Source: Eledone cirrhosa
Taxonomy: Eukaryota
DNA length: 64,000 bases
Assembly: GCA_964016885.1 (NCBI GenBank)
Contig: OZ024740.1
Coordinates: forward strand, 193,626,001-193,690,000
Direction: 5' to 3'
In this document: positions 1,728-61,816 of the stretch, piece after piece
Layout: every line of letters begins with the position of its first letter
Position numbering within the stretch: position 1 is the stretch's first letter
The notes under the pieces: generated by a model
Databases searched by the model: none
What the model was told of the DNA's origin: nothing
Seen by the model: the letters and a program-made list of their open reading frames with translations, nothing else
Made by a program: the position numbers and the translations under genes

Positions 1728-1793
1728 CCGACGAACGAATGAGGACGTTTTTTTCGTATTCGTTTTATTCGGGAAACCTCTGGTAATGAGGTA
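1728..1793 (+). ncRNA. Hammerhead-like motif with non-canonical core (U4->C)
   Basis: CCGACGA, then a long stem II (cgaat/attcg), then GAAA, stem III ACCTC/GAGGT, and A. Stem I is weak. Related copies lie on the - strand at ~198-284 and ~44516-44582. Confidence 0.45.
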
Positions 1794-3337
1794 ATTATAT
1801 TGTATTGTTTATTATACATTAAATTTTGCTCTTGTACTTACATAGAGCACTCTTCACTCCTATGACTTTTTCAATTTTCAACGGAAACTTCAATACTTAT
1901 ATATATATATATGTATATATGTGTGTGTGTGTGTGTAAATAAATATGTATATGTATATATTTATCATACGTATAGAAATATATACATACAAACTGCAGCA
2001 GTGAGGAAAGACTTTAGGTATTAGCTTAACACTCAGCAGTGTTCTAATAGTTCTATTGTACACTACCAATTCTACTGCCTAACAAAAGAGCTCTAATAAG
2101 CAAACATTAGATCCCTTGCATCAATCATCCCATCCTACAATACTAGCCAATTTCATTATCAATTCTTTACAAAATATTTACATATATATATGTTTGTATG
2201 TTTCCCCTGTTGAGCGTGTGTTGTGTGTGTGTGTATGTGTGTGTGTATGTGTGTGTGTATGTGTGTGTGAGTGAGTGTGTGTGAGTGCGTTTGTGTACAT
2301 ATATATTTGAAGCTTTAATACATTATAACAAAAGGGCGATTTGCTTAGATGGGCAATTCCAATAACAGTACAATGATATAAGCAGTTCTGAAGTTCATGG
2401 AAGCATGTCAACATTTTACACATTCATATCGTCAATAATATGTCCTGGCAGGCATAGTTCGTGAAAGTGCTACACGAAAATGCTGATCAAAGACGTCCCT
2501 TTTTGATGGACCTCATCGCCAAATTTACTCTTTACTTAGAATTATTGTGATATGATTAACCATATAGCATGTTTATATTATTTCAAATACAAAGTACAAT
2601 ACTCGAATACAGACAGGACTCTATATATTTGATATCGTGTGTGTTCAAAAGGAAAATAATATTATATTTATTACTGGTCATCTGAATATTGGAGCTTATT
2701 ATATACATATATTATATGCCACCAGCTTTATTGTATTAGTTAAGACCATGCCGAAAGCATGCTTCAAATCTAGGTAATTTCCCAAGAGGTGTAAGGCTAA
2801 TATACATATCAGATTCTTGTAATGTTGAAACAAGATTGTATCGATTTAATTCAATATTGAAAGCGCAGCCACAATATGGTCATGTCTTAACATATGTGGA
2901 ACAAGCATTGAGGGAAACTAATTTATATGCGAGTAAACAAATGTAGATAATAGTGATATGATAAGCACGTGCTTGCATCAAGTATGTATATATATATATA
3001 TATATATATATATATATATATATATATATATATATATATATATATATATATATATATATATATGTATATATATATATATATTATATATATATATATATAT
3101 ATATATATATATATATATATATATATATATATATATATTATACTTGGGGAGGCTCATATTTGTGTAATAATATTGCCAGAATTAATAACAGAACACACTG
3201 ACTGTTTGGTTGGTTTTCGCTTCTCGCTGTCTTTTATATCCGTTAATTTAATTTATTCGGTCCTCAATGTTCCCATTGACTGACCAACGGTCAAAAATAC
3301 AGATATAATATAGACACAAGCACATATATATTGTCTA

Positions 3338-3377
3338 ACAAAGTTCTTTCGTTGCACATCTGCAACATCGTCAGTGG
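3338..3377 (-). ncRNA. Minimal type I hammerhead ribozyme
   Basis: cca-CTGACGA-T-GTTGCA(gatg)TGCAAC-GAAA-G(aa)C-T-T-tg; intact core, 6-bp stem II. Confidence 0.75.
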
Positions 3378-3649
3378 AGATATTATGTTTCCTCCTATTG
3401 TATTGTATGCCTACGCCCTCTTTATTTAGTCTGTTTATTTTTTTTTTGTCTTCTCTGCGCGTACGTTTGCCTGTGTGTATAGTGTTTGATGTGTGTTCGT
3501 GTTTGGTTGACTGCGTATTGGTTATTGTATTCTATCTTAGTTTACTCGTGTGTGTTTATATGTGTTTGCTGTTATTGTGCTTGTGTATGTATTTATTTAT
3601 TTATACTTCTCTTAGGTCAGTATTGTTTGTTTGGGTATTGTTGTTATTC

Positions 3650-4135
3650 CATTCATTTTTTCTTTAGCCTTGGCCTTCTAAGTTCTATTTCGCTGGCCTC
3701 TCTGATTTGCCTATCTGCTGGGTCATTTCTATGTTTAGATATTATTATAATGTATATGTTGTCTATGTTACCGTCGTGTTGTTGTCTGGCATGTTCGTAT
3801 AGTACTGAACTGTTTTTCGTCCTTTTAGATCCCCCCAGTGTTGGTCTATCCTTTCACTTATGCTACGAGCTGTCTCACATATGTATATTGTTGTCATGTT
3901 TCTGCAAGTACCCTCTGTACATCTTATGCTATAGACTACGTTTCTAGTTTTGCAGTTTATCCGGGGGTTTACTTTACATATAATACATTTCCTATTAGTA
4001 CGGTGGGTTTTCTTAAAAGGGTAGGTTTTGCTGATCAGGGATTTTATGGTGGTTCCTGGCTTTTCTACCACCTTAATCTTTAAGTGGGTCTTTCTCAGGG
4101 CTTTTCTACACTGGTTAGCTAATTTCTCTCCAGGG
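3650..4135 (-). pseudogene. PLE linker plus GIY-YIG endonuclease remnant
   Basis: PGEKLANQCRKALRKTHLKIKVVEKPGT..KCIIC..NCKTRNVVYSIRC..IYICETARSISERIDQH..; C-terminal DPADRQIREASEIELRRPRL. Confidence 0.85.
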
Positions 4136-4136
4136 A

Positions 4137-4613
4137 GTGCGCCCTAACAATATACTACCTGTATTAGACACGGAACTCTGGATTAACACAATAGACGAGA
4201 GAGCCCAAATTCTCAACTCACACTACGCTAAACAAATTGCCTCCAAATACCTGATACTCAAAAACTCAGCAATGTCCAGTAGTGCTAAGTTTAACATTTT
4301 GATCGCAGACATGGTACGAGTGATGAAGAAGGTATCCCGCATGTGCGACTCAACAGAAATGAAAAGACACATCCAACACTTCATCAGCCGCATGCAGTTC
4401 TCTGGCTACAACCAAAGAGACAGAATCAGAGTATACGAAGGAACCACGAAGAAGTATATGACCCTCTTAAAACTGGATATGAAAGGAATTTGCCCATTAT
4501 ACAGGAGCAAATCATGGAATAGCTTAGATAGGACTAGACATAAGATAGGGAAAGCCATCTCATGGTACGAAACCCAGGGATACCAGAGTGTCATGTTTGT
4601 GGACGCTACCCCT
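4137..4613 (+). pseudogene. PLE reverse transcriptase C-terminal/thumb remnant
   Basis: LPVLDTELWI..HYAKQIAS..SAMSSSAKFNIL..RMQFSGY..PLYRSKSW..SVMFVDATP, typical of the PLE RT C-terminus. Confidence 0.8.
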
Positions 4614-4969
4614 GCAGATGGACAAATCAGAGAGGTCAGCGAAATAGAACTTAGAAGGCCAAGGCTAAACAGAAACAATGAATGAAATAACAACACCCAA
4701 ACAAACAATACTGACCTAAGAGAAGTATAAATAAATAAATAAATACATACAGAAGCACAATAACAACAAACACATATAAACACACACTAGTAAACAAAGA
4801 TAGAATACATTAACCAATACACAGTCACCGAAAGACGAACACACATTAAACACTATACACACACGCAAAAGCATACGCAGAGAAGACAACAAATAAAATA
4901 AATAAATAAATAAACAGACTAAATAAAGATGGCGTAGGCATACAATACAACAGGAGGAAACATAATAGC

Positions 4970-5010
4970 ACCATTGACGATGTTGCAGATGTGCAACGAA
5001 AGAACTTGGT
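4970..5010 (+). ncRNA. Hammerhead ribozyme, partner copy (C3->U)
   Basis: acca-TTGACGA-T-GTTGCA(gatg)TGCAAC-GAAAGAACTT-ggt. Confidence 0.65.
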
Positions 5011-59583: not shown

Positions 59584-59754
59584 ACTAATCACACTTGATC
59601 ATATTTCTCTATCCCGTTTTCTCCTCCCATAATTATTATATTTTTATTATTATTGGTTTTTTGTCGGAGATTCCTTCATAGAAGCCTCATTCGTATAGCC
59701 AATGAATTCTTGGCGCGATCGTTTTGGAAAATGTAATGTCTAGATATAAGCGAG

Positions 59755-59840
59755 CTTCCTGAAGAATCCGGCGCTCGAGTTTATGTAATTATTACATAAT
59801 TATTGGAAAACTCAAAACACGGACGAAACCATGGTAGAGG
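59755..59840 (+). ncRNA. Hammerhead ribozyme, array copy 1
   Basis: cttc-CTGAAGA-aTCCG..gagttt..aaactc..CGGAc-GAAA-CCATGG-TA-gagg; predicted cleavage after 59836. Confidence 0.8.
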
Positions 59841-60414
59841 TATTTAAATGTATTCTATTTTCTCCTAGTTTATTTTAAACCTAATTCTGTTTAGTTGACT
59901 GTATCTAGGCGATTACGCTCTCGAAATATTCGATAAATATTCCGCTACGGCCGACGCGAAGCGCTACTTTCGGTTATTTGTCAGAGATTCCTTCATAGAA
60001 GCCTCATTCGTATAGCCTGGTCTATTCGATTTCTTATATAGTTAATTATGCAAATTGGGAGAGGAAATAGTTTATATTTTATCTTGTGATTCTATAGACA
60101 TGATTTATGATATATAGCTCTGATTGTTTAATTTATTAATTTTTCATTGCGCCACAAAGTGACCAGTTGCAAAACACGTATATGTATGTGTATGTATATA
60201 TATATATGTAATCTGTTATATGTAATAATCTCCCACTAGGTTGAGATACACATTTGGCTGTATTGTGCTGTGCTTTCTAGCAAAATGCCACCAGTCGTAA
60301 GCAACTACCACACCCCTTCCAACTTGACCGCGACTACGTCAAGATTTTTAGCCATTTTGAAATGAATTCTTGGCGCGATCGTTTTGGAAAATTTAATGTC
60401 TAGATATGAGCGAG

Positions 60415-60500
60415 CTTCCTGAAGAATCCGGCGCTCGAGTTTATATAATTATTACATAATTATTTGAAAACTCAAAACACGGACGAAACCATGGTAGAGG
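60415..60500 (+). ncRNA. Hammerhead ribozyme, array copy 2
   Basis: Same fold; predicted cleavage after 60496. Confidence 0.8.
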
Positions 60501-61072
60501 TATTTAAATGTATTCTATTTTCTCCTAGTTTATTTTAAACCTAATTCTGTTTAGTTGACTGTATCTAGGCGATTACGCTCTCGAAATATTCGATAAATAT
60601 TCCGCTACGGCCGACGCGAAGCGCTACTTTCGGTTATTTGTCAGAGATTCCTTCATAGAAGCCCCATTCGTATAGCCTGGTCTATTCGATTTCTTATATA
60701 GTTAATTATGCTAATTGGGAGAGGAAATAGTTTATATTTTATCTTGTGATTCTATAGACATGATTTATGATATATAGCTCTGATTGTTTAATTTATTAAT
60801 TTTTCATTGCGCCACAAAGTGACCAGTTGCAAAACACGTATATGTATGTGTATGTATATATATATGTAATCTGTTATATGTAATAATCTCCCACTAGGTT
60901 GAGATACACATTTGGCTGTATTGTGCTGTGCTTTCTAGCAAAATGCCACCAGTCGTAAGCAACTACCACACCCCTTCCAACTTGACCGCGACTACGTCAA
61001 GATTTTTAGCCATTTTGAAATGAATTCTTGGCGCGATCGTTTTGGAAAATTTAATGTCTAGATATGAGCGAG

Positions 61073-61158
61073 CTTCCTGAAGAATCCGGCGCTCGAGTTT
61101 ATATAATTATTACATAATTATTTGAAAACTCAAAACACGGACGAAACCATGGTAGAGG
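61073..61158 (+). ncRNA. Hammerhead ribozyme, array copy 3
   Basis: Same fold; predicted cleavage after 61154. Confidence 0.8.
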
Positions 61159-61730
61159 TATTTAAATGTATTCTATTTTCTCCTAGTTTATTTTAAACCT
61201 AATTCTGTTTAGTTGACTGTATCTAGGCGATTACGCTCTCGAAATATTCGATAAATATTCCGCTACGGCCGACGCGAAGCGCTACTTTCGGTTATTTGTC
61301 AGAGATTCCTTCATAGAAGCCCCATTCGTATAGCCTGGTCTATTCGATTTCTTATATAGTTAATTATGCTAATTGGGAGAGGAAATAGTTTATATTTTAT
61401 CTTGTGATTCTATAGACATGATTTATGATATATAGCTCTGATTGTTTAATTTATTAATTTTTCATTGCGCCACAAAGTGACCAGTTGCAAAACACGTATA
61501 TGTATGTGTATGTATATATATATGTAATCTGTTATATGTAATAATCTCCCACTAGGTTGAGATACACATTTGGCTGTATTGTGCTGTGCTTTCTAGCAAA
61601 ATGCCACCAGTCGTAAGCAACTACCACACCCCTTCCAACTTGACCGCGACTACGTCACGATTTTTAGCCATTTTGAAATGAATTCTTGGCGCGATCGTTT
61701 TGGAAAATTTAATGTCTAGATATGAGCGAG

Positions 61731-61816
61731 CTTCCTGAAAAATCCGGCGCTCGAGTTTATATAATTAATACATAATTATTGGAAAACTCAAAACACGGAC
61801 GAAACCATGGTAGAGG
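61731..61816 (+). ncRNA. Hammerhead ribozyme, array copy 4, G8->A mutant
   Basis: Core reads CTGAAAA instead of CTGAAGA. Confidence 0.7.

Follow-up and report, generated by a model that had tools for sequence, protein, structure and literature searches.

The window, that is, the whole 64-kb stretch of Eledone cirrhosa DNA analysed here, holds PLE fragments, broken PLE copies, non-coding elements and a tandem array, which together carry hammerhead (HHR) motifs of about 13 families (Table 1).

Table 1. HHR-bearing elements and permuted motifs in the window (strand as recorded; positions are those of the window)
Feature	Position	Strand	Details
Non-coding HHR family F1, 3' fragment	172..277	-	core 264(-), U4C and a second core change
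F1 element, (TA)n at its end	755..1897	+	type I core 1728, U4C, A.G at 10.1-11.1, 10-bp stem I
5'-truncated PLE, inverted pair between (TA)n tracts	3138..5271	.	cores 3374(-) (intact, H17=U) and 4974(+) (C3U); RT piece 4143-4526(+), GIY-YIG piece 3814-4161(-)
Two abutting 3' fragments, families F3 and F2b	8201..8946	+	F3 core 8440, decayed; F2b core 8756, helix III broken
Neptune-like PLE 3' fragment, inverted pair	13088..14747	.	U3-A8 core 14529(+); deleted copy near 13331(-)
Broken Neptune-like PLE, inverted 5' arm	28607..34286	+	U3-A8 cores 28712(-), 34117(+); 775-aa RT+GIY-YIG ORF open in other copies
Non-coding inverted-pair element	34305..35000	.	HHR boxes 34483(-), 34800(+), stems imperfect
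Short 3' fragment between (TA)n tracts	38628..38813	+	intact type I HHR, core 38712
Broken Hydra-type PLE	38939..42693	-	two G5U HHR homologues, 39104(-), 42363(+); 808-aa ORF open in other copies
F1 3' fragment	44413..44590	-	core 44582(-)
HHR-like boxes, unconfirmed	44607..44867	+	boxes at 44629
Repeat with type I HHR	45069..45723	-	core 45396(-), long helix III
Non-coding PLE-type element, 531-nt unit, partial tandem, (TA)n end	49472..50132	+	two S-G-C permuted motifs
5'-truncated S-G-C motif, core 49531	49472..49542	+	blocks S, G, C kept; upstream strand of helices a and b missing
Complete S-G-C motif	49973..50073	+	helix a 49973-76/50070-73; hairpin 49978-97; helix b 49999-50002/50030-33; helix c 50004-09/50049-54; stem III 50012-17/50038-43; stem I 50019-24/50056-61; H17 50018 (predicted cut after it); GAAA 50035-38; CUGAUGA 50062-68
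Non-coding family F10, 3' fragment	50355..50512	+	intact type I core 50376, H17=U, palindromic helix III
Non-autonomous PLE-type array, 3.6 tandem 658-bp units, (TA)n end	59701..62085	+	cores 59759, 60419, 61077 (A.C at 10.1-11.1), 61735 (G8A); 35% GC

The original prediction of about 20 HHR folds stood in large part. The boxes it described were found at all 19 named sites, of which 16 are members of type I HHR families, with CUGANGA or U3-A8, GAAA and the UH core present and stems I–III in type I order. Two sites, 49531 and 50062, were rejected as type I folds because GAAA is absent downstream, and are S-G-C permuted motifs. The boxes at 44629 are unconfirmed as an HHR, stem I being absent and no homologue being found among the fetched loci. 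Five further sites, 264(-), 39104(-), 42363, 44582(-) and 45396(-), had been overlooked. No hammerhead family, Hammerhead_1 (RF00163) included, was present among 150 of the 151 Rfam matches in the window at E ≤ 1; elsewhere in the genome, RF00163 gave 18 matches above cut-off among 74 scored.

Six of the 16 type I members pass the descriptor and ten are variant or decayed. The sites listed as intact were confirmed for 3374(-), 38712 and 50376, which fall into class A (intact core, all stems and a score of at least 20), and for the three array copies 59759, 60419 and 61077, which form class B (intact core with a mismatch at 10.1-11.1 fixed within the family); site 8756, however, is not intact because its helix III is broken, and 34483(-), like 34800, has imperfect stems, with relatives at loci L100 and L159. 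Sites 1728, 4974 (where C3U is the lone core change), 8440 (two core changes) and 61735 were rightly called variant or decayed, whereas several others on that list are known natural core variants: the U3-A8 of 14529, 28712(-) and 34117, which have a short stem I, is a known natural covariation and not decay. The families of the variant and decayed sites have intact members elsewhere.

The PLE coding capacity that is broken in the window is preserved in the genome, where the RT+GIY-YIG frame is open (775, 808 and 821 aa) in autonomous copies of the Hydra and Neptune types, the HHR being located in the terminal repeats. The Hydra-clade assignment is based on a comparison of the motifs of open copies with section 11 of PMC8557442: the element at 38939-42693 and the 821-aa family display RWK, DKT, a CxCx5C linker (its third Cys missing from the 808-aa copy), no CCHH, a terminal CxxC/CxH, an HHR and (TA)n, while the Hydra-type frames gave no Pfam match. 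The Neptune-clade assignment of the element at 28607-34286 rests on motifs and profile scores, namely RT followed by GIY-YIG with an internal Cys pair, a Cx2-5CxxC linker and DKG, with GIY-YIG above cut-off and RVT_1, at 28.7 bits, just below 29.6. PLE ORF pieces lay beside the HHR at all 8 loci of the 775-aa family, in 7 of 9 chosen pairs of the largest superfamily and in 4 of 4 F2b pairs, all loci picked for this. That superfamily includes core 38712, has 90,228 pattern matches and is linked in other copies to Hydra-type PLE ORFs. Judged by their sequence, the folds are type I HHRs close to the 3' ends of PLEs of the Hydra and Neptune types and of non-coding derivatives. The non-coding elements carry signatures of PLE-type insertion (partial tandems, inverted 5'-truncated arms, two 3' termini), and copies of the 658-bp family mostly span 1-1.7 units; the array itself has three consecutive intact cores and the retrozyme trait of at least two consecutive non-coding units with a complete type I HHR and low GC. 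The proposed ecosystem of autonomous PLEs and non-coding HHR elements at (TA)n tracts is borne out, except that the latter are dispersed insertions and not satellites.

Descriptor matches in the window exceeded those in local shuffles both at a score of at least 22 (16 against a shuffle mean of 6.1) and at least 30 (5 against 0.21), with 0 of 100 shuffles as high in either case; for the intact-core class, 3 were found against 0.54, a number reached by 3 of 100 shuffles. Relaxed two-defect matches were mostly noise (33 against 22 shuffled at a score of at least 18). One recurring descriptor match lies inside a LINE reading frame. The density is, however, a genome-wide trait and not peculiar to this window, in contrast to the extraordinary local density originally claimed: the window contains 7 intact-core folds in 64 kb (109/Mb), compared to 101 in 800 kb of background (126/Mb), where reversed, complemented and shuffled controls gave 2-8. 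It is the genome itself that is the outlier. In its 3.0 Gb, three exact patterns yielded 166,027 matches (55/Mb) compared to 596 in controls, the individual patterns giving 11,234 (the F2b core, the family of site 8756), 90,228 and 64,565 matches, with 0, 19 and 577 in controls. Extrapolation from the 0.8-Mb sample, using a descriptor looser than published ones, suggests a genome total of about 230,000-360,000 HHRs. Homology-defined sites, 14 in the window (one a false positive within a LINE ORF) compared to 8.5 per 64 kb of background (P about 0.10), and 39 in 200 kb of flanks, make the neighbourhood mildly rich in such sites.

Of five pattern classes selected purely on sequence, three have a stem I that is 93-96% paired, and in four the stem I pairing exceeds all 500 cross-row shuffles; the F2 class (4 rows, mis-set gap) displayed no pairing excess. 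The palindromic stem III noted in the window recurs in the background, helix III being wholly self-complementary in 61 of 101 folds, no longer than 10 nt in 93 and limited to at most 2 bp as a monomer in 72. The 10.1-11.1 position is G-C in 34 of these folds and mismatched in 35.

The closeness of the folds to (TA)n held both in the window, where 16 of 19 sites lie within 300 nt of a tract compared to 30% of random positions, and beyond it, with a tract within 300 nt downstream for 61 of 87 HHRs (14.6% at random) and upstream for 23 of 85. The distance from HHR to the following tract is fixed per family. In many cases an insertion consists of two inverted arms that point outward, and 16 of the 18 distinct inverted pairs combine a short with a long 3' end; internal tandem junctions are without a long TA run, and TA stands directly at the 5' junction in only 2 of 5 non-inverted array-family copies. 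A likely explanation, drawing on PMC11167929, is that the two strands of the self-complementary (TA)n are nicked by a dimer of the PLE protein and that reverse transcription would be primed at two positions inside the element RNA, often short UA stretches, which would leave two HHR-bearing arms per insertion. Following PMC4209133 and PMC7229834, type I HHRs with a palindromic helix III would cut mainly as dimers in tandem transcripts, giving unit-length and circular templates, and most of the copies that are dispersed and single would cut slowly or not at all. In published work, PLE HHRs cleave slowly, need to dimerise or are assisted by a protein (PMC4209133, PMC11167929).

The sites at 49531 and 50062 belong to a newly recognised non-coding PLE-type family, with 13,371 pattern matches in the genome, in which all three HHR blocks are present in the non-circular order S-G-C. 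In the family alignment, 93.6% of 1,526 cells are paired, compared to 27-44% in slid controls, and 100 cells are changed on both sides compared to 37.7 in shuffles (0 of 500 as high); the copies are related, and these counts are therefore not probabilities. Stem I is 97% paired with both-side changes in 4 of 6 pairs, and five pairs of stem III are 96-100% paired with double changes in one, while in helix a no pair changed on both sides, and 38 of 500 shuffles had at least as many pairs with a double change (11 compared to 9.1). The base at H17 is A (36) or C (9), N7 is variable and the remaining core is fixed, also across subfamilies with a mean identity of 80%. Blocks outside the selection criteria were retained (CUGANGA 27/30, GAAA 29/30, S block 26/30), and a strict descriptor gave 43 matches in 1.66 Mb, all of this family, with 0 in reversed and 1 and 0 in shuffled sequence. 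A direct stem II helix between the strands after CUGANGA and before GAAA was not found; stem II is a single 10.1-11.1 pair (45/45), and both strands instead pair with an upstream strand. Since base 11.1 pairs equally well with an upstream base (45/45), the catalytic junction can be folded in more than one way. The family, filed as an SGC-order variant and not as a member of HRIMA-1, is predicted to self-cleave after H17, and the motif would do as a monomer the job of the type I dimers, stems I and III forming pseudoknots and the upstream strand restoring stem II.

The carrier of this motif is likely a Naiad-type derivative. By eye, complete S-G-C or C-S-G blocks are present at 9 of 16 published Naiad 3' ends and were not seen at the other 7, which would explain the 'missing' Naiad HHR. 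As no autonomous partner with the motif was found in more than 70 loci, no ORF was adjacent in the loci examined and the published Naiad_Ovul-type motif had 0 exact matches in this genome, the Naiad link is one of likeness, the RNA fold resembling that of Naiad_Ovul by eye.

Taken together, it is quite probable that the window contains type I HHRs near the 3' ends of about a dozen PLE families and their protein-free derivatives, at a density that is ordinary for this genome because such families likely insert by nicking (TA)n tracts, and that two sites belong to a 13,000-copy non-coding S-G-C family predicted to self-cleave. With the rest of this picture unchanged, the S-G-C motif could be a structured element conserved as a signal, such as one that serves RT binding or priming, or else the relic of a dead HHR, which we regard as unlikely, if the most serious of the alternatives. 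The lack of a canonical multi-pair stem II, the ambiguous junction and RT start sites 14-66 nt downstream of the motif fit such a role, as does the finding that an anole PLE could transpose in vitro without HHR cleavage, a cleavage that needed protein (PMC11167929). Against it, variation falls where HHRs tolerate change while the core is fixed, the compensatory changes, which affect stems I and III, helices b and c and the hairpin, arose recently, between subfamilies, and by eye published Naiads share the block order in unrelated letters, three of them with a full 5-bp stem II.

That the elements themselves make the (TA)n tails, by slippage on short internal UA stretches, is improbable. The mainly downstream enrichment, the 3' termini that fall on short TA stretches inside array-family and Neptune-like elements and the three non-inverted 5' junctions not directly at TA would suit such tails; the long run is nevertheless missing from internal tandem junctions, two families (L181, L182) end where the element has merely 1-2 nt of TA likeness, and a (TA)n preference is published for Hydra and Naiad families, Octopus included (PMC8557442). 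A local hotspot of functional ribozymes cleaving a host transcript, as originally suggested, is very improbable: the raised homology-defined counts in window and flanks favour it, yet the intact-core density is not raised, the homology excess has a P of about 0.10, the sites lie on both strands with many decayed, no host gene was identified among the window ORFs, and 72 of the 101 background folds have a monomeric helix III of at most 2 bp. Chance matches in AT-rich, repeat-rich DNA might account for relaxed matches and the one in the LINE frame; as an explanation of the folds chance has a negligible probability, and for the intact-core classes it is refuted by the background and pattern controls and by compensatory pairing, which is found in the type I classes and in the S-G-C motif.

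HHR-bearing, (TA)n-preferring PLEs are already known, Octopus included. Type I HHRs sit in PLE pseudo-LTRs (Cervera and de la Pena 2014, PMC4209133), and those of the window share with them the topology, the short palindromic helix III, the U3-A8 variant, an extra base after A9 in some families, the many families per genome and copies that are mostly single or opposite-strand pairs 0.1 to several kb apart; G10.1-C11.1 is scarcer here (34/101), and at least 166,027 motifs compare with about 2,000-9,000 min-HHRs. With the Hydra-clade PLEs, including Hydra-1_Obim of Octopus (Craig et al. 2021, PMC8557442), the elements share a C-terminal GIY-YIG without CCHH, RWK, DKT, the CxCx5C linker, the terminal CxxC/CxH, a canonical HHR and (TA)n insertion. 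Few such families were described there, whereas one RT piece gave 23,511 first-look candidates here, the linked HHR superfamily has 90,228 matches and one young family has a fixed U4C.

The S-G-C order, full core, pseudoknotted stems and few bases linking the stem I strand to the strand before GAAA are shared with the type-SGC and type-CSG HHRs (Eckert et al. 2023, PMC10085705). Those 583 sequences came from metatranscriptomic, virus-like RNAs, and Octopus, Mollusca, Eukaryota and Metazoa are absent from the supplement text; the present family, in contrast, is an animal retroelement with 13,371 matches, an extended stem III and a stem II of one pair plus two helices to the upstream strand around a hairpin. 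The Naiad PLEs with an 'HHR_core' or 'HHR_half_core' (PMC8557442) share the (TA)n preference, pseudo-LTR, tail, CUGANGA in the 3' UTR and GAAA 'on either side', and the 5' strand, hairpin, internal loop and helices b and c of the S-G-C family can be made out by eye in the 3' end of the Octopus Naiad, although the family itself is non-coding. No canonical HHR was reported for Naiads, permuted forms not being considered (PMC8557442). On balance we lean towards the wider reading that Naiad-type PLEs never lost the HHR and that many hold it as a non-circular permutation, with the order S-G-C in families of cephalopods, cnidarians and chelicerates and C-S-G in those of nematodes. This genome, with more than 13,000 active S-G-C copies and stem II rebuilt as a multi-helix junction, would then be the first genomic animal example and perhaps the most HHR-dense genome described (about 100/Mb).

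Non-LTR retrozymes, proposed to be non-autonomous PLE derivatives (PMC7229834; bioRxiv 10.64898/2026.07.22.740005), likewise have non-coding tandem units of 310-740 bp with one HHR per unit, low GC and co-occurring PLEs, but the inverted arm, two 3' termini and (TA)n ends of the units here are direct marks of PLE insertion. The axolotl has 126,247 HHRs in a genome about nine times larger (PMC7229834; bioRxiv 10.64898/2026.07.22.740005), a number exceeded by the extrapolated total of the present genome.

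The density of hammerhead ribozymes (HHRs), which the original prediction had called extraordinary for the window, was compared with that in 80 evenly spaced 10-kb stretches of the same genome. This background contained 66 class A folds (intact core, all stems, score of at least 20) and 35 class B folds (intact core, 10.1-11.1 mismatch), corresponding to 126 per Mb (bootstrap 94-160), with at least one fold in 47 of the 80 stretches; the reversed and complemented controls gave 5 folds each and the shuffled ones 2-8. The window, with 3 class A and 4 class B folds, reached 109 per Mb, and its flanks (200 kb) contained 13 and 12, respectively. 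When decayed copies were included by homology, 14 window sites, one of them a false positive, were counted compared with 8.5 per 64 kb (P about 0.10), using a background-only library in place of one enriched for window families (18 versus 10 per 64 kb), which was dropped. The GC content is 34% and the 91 (TA)6+ runs are on a par with the background (108 per 64 kb). At least 38% of the window matches repeats found in 1 Mb of other sequence, repeat edges fall at TA runs, and the long ORFs are retroelement pieces, with no host gene seen among them. The window itself is not special; it is ordinary for an extraordinary genome.

Across the 3.0-Gb assembly, three mutually exclusive exact patterns yielded 11,234, 90,228 and 64,565 matches, against 0, 19 and 577 for their reversed controls; a U3-A8 pattern (2,116 matches, control 164) was left out of the total since it missed the main U3-A8 family. 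As exact patterns are blind to pairing, this was checked on fetched copies picked by sequence alone: stem I pairing reached 96%, 95%, 79% and 93% in four pattern classes, values that none of 500 cross-row shuffles attained, and a fifth class (F2), with 4 rows only and a mis-set gap, showed no excess. Extrapolated from the background with controls subtracted, the genome-wide number of HHRs comes to between about 230,000 (class A) and 360,000 (classes A and B), and at least 25 HHR clusters are present in two or more loci. The largest published count found is 126,247 in the 28-Gb axolotl genome (PMC7229834; bioRxiv 10.64898/2026.07.22.740005), the giant squid genome paper lists 235 Rfam hits, and our literature search met no report of HHRs on a comparable scale in cephalopods. 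The genome is an HHR outlier, its status as a record being provisional because descriptors differ between studies. At roughly one hammerhead per 8-13 kb, the genome serves as a naturally occurring mutational scan of the HHR core, and the same density makes the tolerance of ribozymes by long pre-mRNAs directly measurable.

The type I descriptor (core CUGANGA or its U3-A8 variant, GAAA and UH, with stems scored and bulges allowed) was relaxed from a strict initial form that gave only 2 window folds; two-defect matches were mostly noise and were excluded from the counts. As predicted, the window exceeded local dinucleotide shuffles, with 16 hits versus 6.1 at scores of at least 22 and 5 versus 0.21 at scores of at least 30 (0 of 100 shuffles as high in either case); the defect-free class gave 3 versus 0.54 (3 of 100 as high). 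The observation was confirmed in part: among the 19 sites behind the proposed "about 20" folds, 16 are type I family members, whereas 44629 was unconfirmed and 49531 and 50062 are not type I; five further homologues had been overlooked. Ten of the 19 are indeed variant or decayed members of families present elsewhere, but some supposed decay represents family traits, since U3-A8, U4C and U10.1-U11.1 are natural core variants on record (PMC4209133, PMC3088659, PMC7229834). In an Rfam scan of the window, the matches listed (150 of 151 at E<=1) were only of a low-complexity, miRNA type. One apparent U3-A8 match was rejected because it lies inside a LINE ORF (1 of the 66 class A background hits); it is repeated in every copy of this LINE frame, a trap for descriptor censuses. 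The U3-A8 family at 49253-49409 accounts for 86 blast pieces among the fetched loci, and its helix III hairpin corresponds to a near-hit to the Rfam model Plastid-psbJ-2. H17 was U in 23 of the 101 background folds, some of them from very abundant families (those of window sites 3374, 8756 and 50376). A U at this position usually makes a poor cleavage triplet.

Features of the window, with positions in nt
Feature	Position (strand)	Remarks
Class A folds, predicted sites	3374 (-), 38712, 50376	
Class B folds, predicted sites	three array copies	intact core, 10.1-11.1 mismatch
Degenerate (TA)n field	15788-18412	2.3 kb, with inserted short repeats
Inverted repeat in (TA)n field	16315-16578 / 18149-18412	264 bp, 99% identical
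Short interspersed repeat	18913-19155, 20366-20622, 43197-43413, 52335-52599	very abundant (>100 per Mb), no TA boundaries
Old relative of 658-bp unit	25894-26197	66%; same 3' terminus, ends at (TA)n run
Neptune-like Penelope-like element (PLE)	28607-34286	broken copy
Hydra-type PLE	38939-42693	Hydra-clade motifs
RTE-like LINE	45754-49233 (-)	endonuclease, RT, PHD-like finger within RT frame; common in background
Two head-to-head 3' halves, U3-A8 HHR family	49253-49409	high-copy; long helix III (6-bp, capped)
S-G-C family element	49472-50132	motif copies at 49531 and 50062
Non-LTR LINE frame	52637-54689	
Chance HHR-like match ("U3-A8")	53888-53972	inside LINE ORF
658-bp tandem array	59701-62085	

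The predicted proximity of HHRs to (TA)n tracts held in the background. After removal of tandem duplicates, (TA)8+ lay within 300 nt downstream of 61 of 87 folds, compared with 14.6% at random, and within 300 nt upstream of 23 of 85, while other dinucleotide runs were found downstream of 9 of 87 (random 5.3%). The distances are fixed per family, and each family has two 3' termini, with tails of about 106, 65, 26 and 40-50 nt. Distinct inverted pairs combined one short and one long end in 16 of 18 cases, the exceptions having two short ends and one unusually long end, respectively. Such a combination is the PLE tail signature, for which in vitro work offers an explanation: reverse transcription starts at two internal sites, and a dimer nicks both strands (PMC11167929). 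Long TA runs are missing from internal tandem junctions, an argument for TA as the target of insertion; of the non-inverted 5' junctions, only 2 of 5 lay directly at TA. Termini coincide with short internal TA stretches in two families, in contrast to the non-homologous priming described for the anole element (PMC11167929).

The element classes carrying type I HHRs here are already known. The Neptune-like element belongs to a family with open 775-aa RT and GIY-YIG frames and Neptune-type motifs, in which a U3-A8 HHR is part of the terminal repeats at all 8 loci. In L139 and L140, of this family, an upstream 409-aa ORF without Pfam match overlaps the RT frame in another frame, resembling the frameshifted ORF1 described for some PLEs. 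Hydra-clade motifs also occur in an 821-aa family tied to the HHR superfamily with 90,228 matches; PDB and Pfam searches with the Hydra-type proteins gave nothing, and an Octopus Hydra family with an HHR and (TA)n preference is already listed (PMC8557442). An 808-aa Hydra-type family (L166-L169) is young, with near-identical copies, open frames, U.U at 10.1-11.1 and a fixed U4C core, the latter being fixed in two further families. In the largest HHR superfamily (e.g. window 38712), none of the 34 distinct copies has a base pair at stem II position four, where C.C predominates; this conserved internal mismatch is possibly the site of a tertiary contact. Non-coding HHR elements do exist beside PLEs, as had been proposed, but the label of satellites does not fit the 658-bp array: its family (2,614 first-look candidates) is dispersed, with at most about 1.7 units in 12 other loci, frequently beside an inverted arm that is 5'-truncated. 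Arrays of 14-17 or more units of 311 or 466 bp occur in other families and are non-LTR retrozymes (cf. PMC7229834; bioRxiv 10.64898/2026.07.22.740005).

The suggestion that host transcripts crossing the region could be self-cleaved found no support: helix III, when alone, is 2 bp or shorter in 72 of 101 background folds, and at 11 window sites, folds constrained to the HHR are 2.5-12 kcal/mol less stable than the minimum-energy ones. The PLE HHRs described in the literature cleave slowly, as dimers or with the help of protein (PMC4209133, PMC11167929).

What is new is a permuted hammerhead family, with predicted cleavage, to which 49531 and 50062 belong. Both contain CUGAUGA and no downstream GAAA, within a 531-nt non-coding element whose C-block (CUGANGA) pattern matched the genome 5,682 times, and the pattern of its S (cleavage) and G (GAAA) blocks 13,371 times (control 1). 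Units of about 530-740 nt form partial tandems with inverted arms and TA ends. In an alignment of 46 full-length distinct copies (from 52), the S block comprises a stem III strand, U16.1, H17 and a stem I strand; next come GAAA and the second stem III strand, and finally the second stem I strand, CUGANGA and 10.1. This S-G-C order, compared with C-G-S in type I, is the non-circular permutation described by Eckert et al. (PMC10085705). Across 45 distinct rows, 93.6% of cells were paired (slid controls 27-44%) and 100 cells had changed on both sides versus 37.7 in shuffles (0 of 500), while 11 pairs showed a double change versus 9.1, equalled in 38 of 500 shuffles. H17 was A or C and N7 varied. 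As a control for selection bias, copies picked on one block were inspected for the other blocks, which were retained in 26-29 of 30. In 1.66 Mb, a strict family-blind S-G-C descriptor found 43 distinct hits, none from outside this superfamily.

The two sites were also considered as twister, type II or type III ribozymes, readings that were dropped because block order and stems fit S-G-C. Descriptors for C-S-G and G-C-S each scored 1 hit per 1 Mb scanned, no more than in the controls, and an Rfam scan of the motif gave only 5 weak, unrelated matches. Stem II of the S-G-C motif is a single pair (U-G 20, U-A 19, C-G 6), and the strands beyond it pair instead with an upstream strand, either side of a covarying hairpin, so that the predicted ribozyme has the SGC hammerhead-like layout, yet lacks one of the features that define the published type. 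Within the subfamily of the window copy, helix b shows a compensatory change; helix a shows none, 11.1 can pair equally well with another base, and the 49531 copy is without the upstream strand. The family is contained in three DNA contig sets (one sample), where no joints were seen. A metagenome pattern scan gave 88 stretches, of which 80 were examined; 8 had a loose core downstream and none, on inspection, the family's stems.

Standard type I descriptors and Rfam overlook S-G-C motifs and many type I families with a 10.1-11.1 mismatch, and animal ribozyme censuses are therefore likely undercounts. Non-circularly permuted hammerheads were previously represented only by a few hundred metatranscriptomic sequences (PMC10085705). 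No autonomous partner of the S-G-C family was found among more than 70 loci of the Eledone cirrhosa genome. Naiads have been reported to be without canonical HHRs, with "core" and "half core" cases flagged (PMC8557442); their 3' ends printed in that supplement were read by eye only, unlabelled ends being named by table order. Nine of the 16 ends show S-G-C or C-S-G blocks: S-G-C with stems I and III in Naiad_Obim, Naiad_Ovul, Naiad_Esco and the records before Naiad_Sdum, Naiad-1_Dst and Naiad-4_Chem, and C-S-G with full stems I, II and III plus an extra helix in those before Naiad_Hpol, Naiad-2_Nbra and Naiad-3_Nbra. Permuted blocks were not seen by eye in Naiad_Omin, Naiad_Adux, Naiad-1_Skow and the records before Naiad-4_Dst, Naiad-2_Dst, Naiad-2_Chem and Naiad_Olur. 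A link between Naiads and permuted hammerheads was found neither in openly accessible papers nor in the supplement search. The S-G-C hammerhead is probably general among Naiads. If true, a chromosomal high-copy family together with the wiring of Naiad ends would answer the stated puzzle that Naiads thrive without HHRs, and self-cleavage would be restored as a near-universal PLE trait. The Octopus Naiad end, as read by eye, shares the upstream strand, the hairpin, helices b and c and the internal loop with the S-G-C family, although the letters differ.
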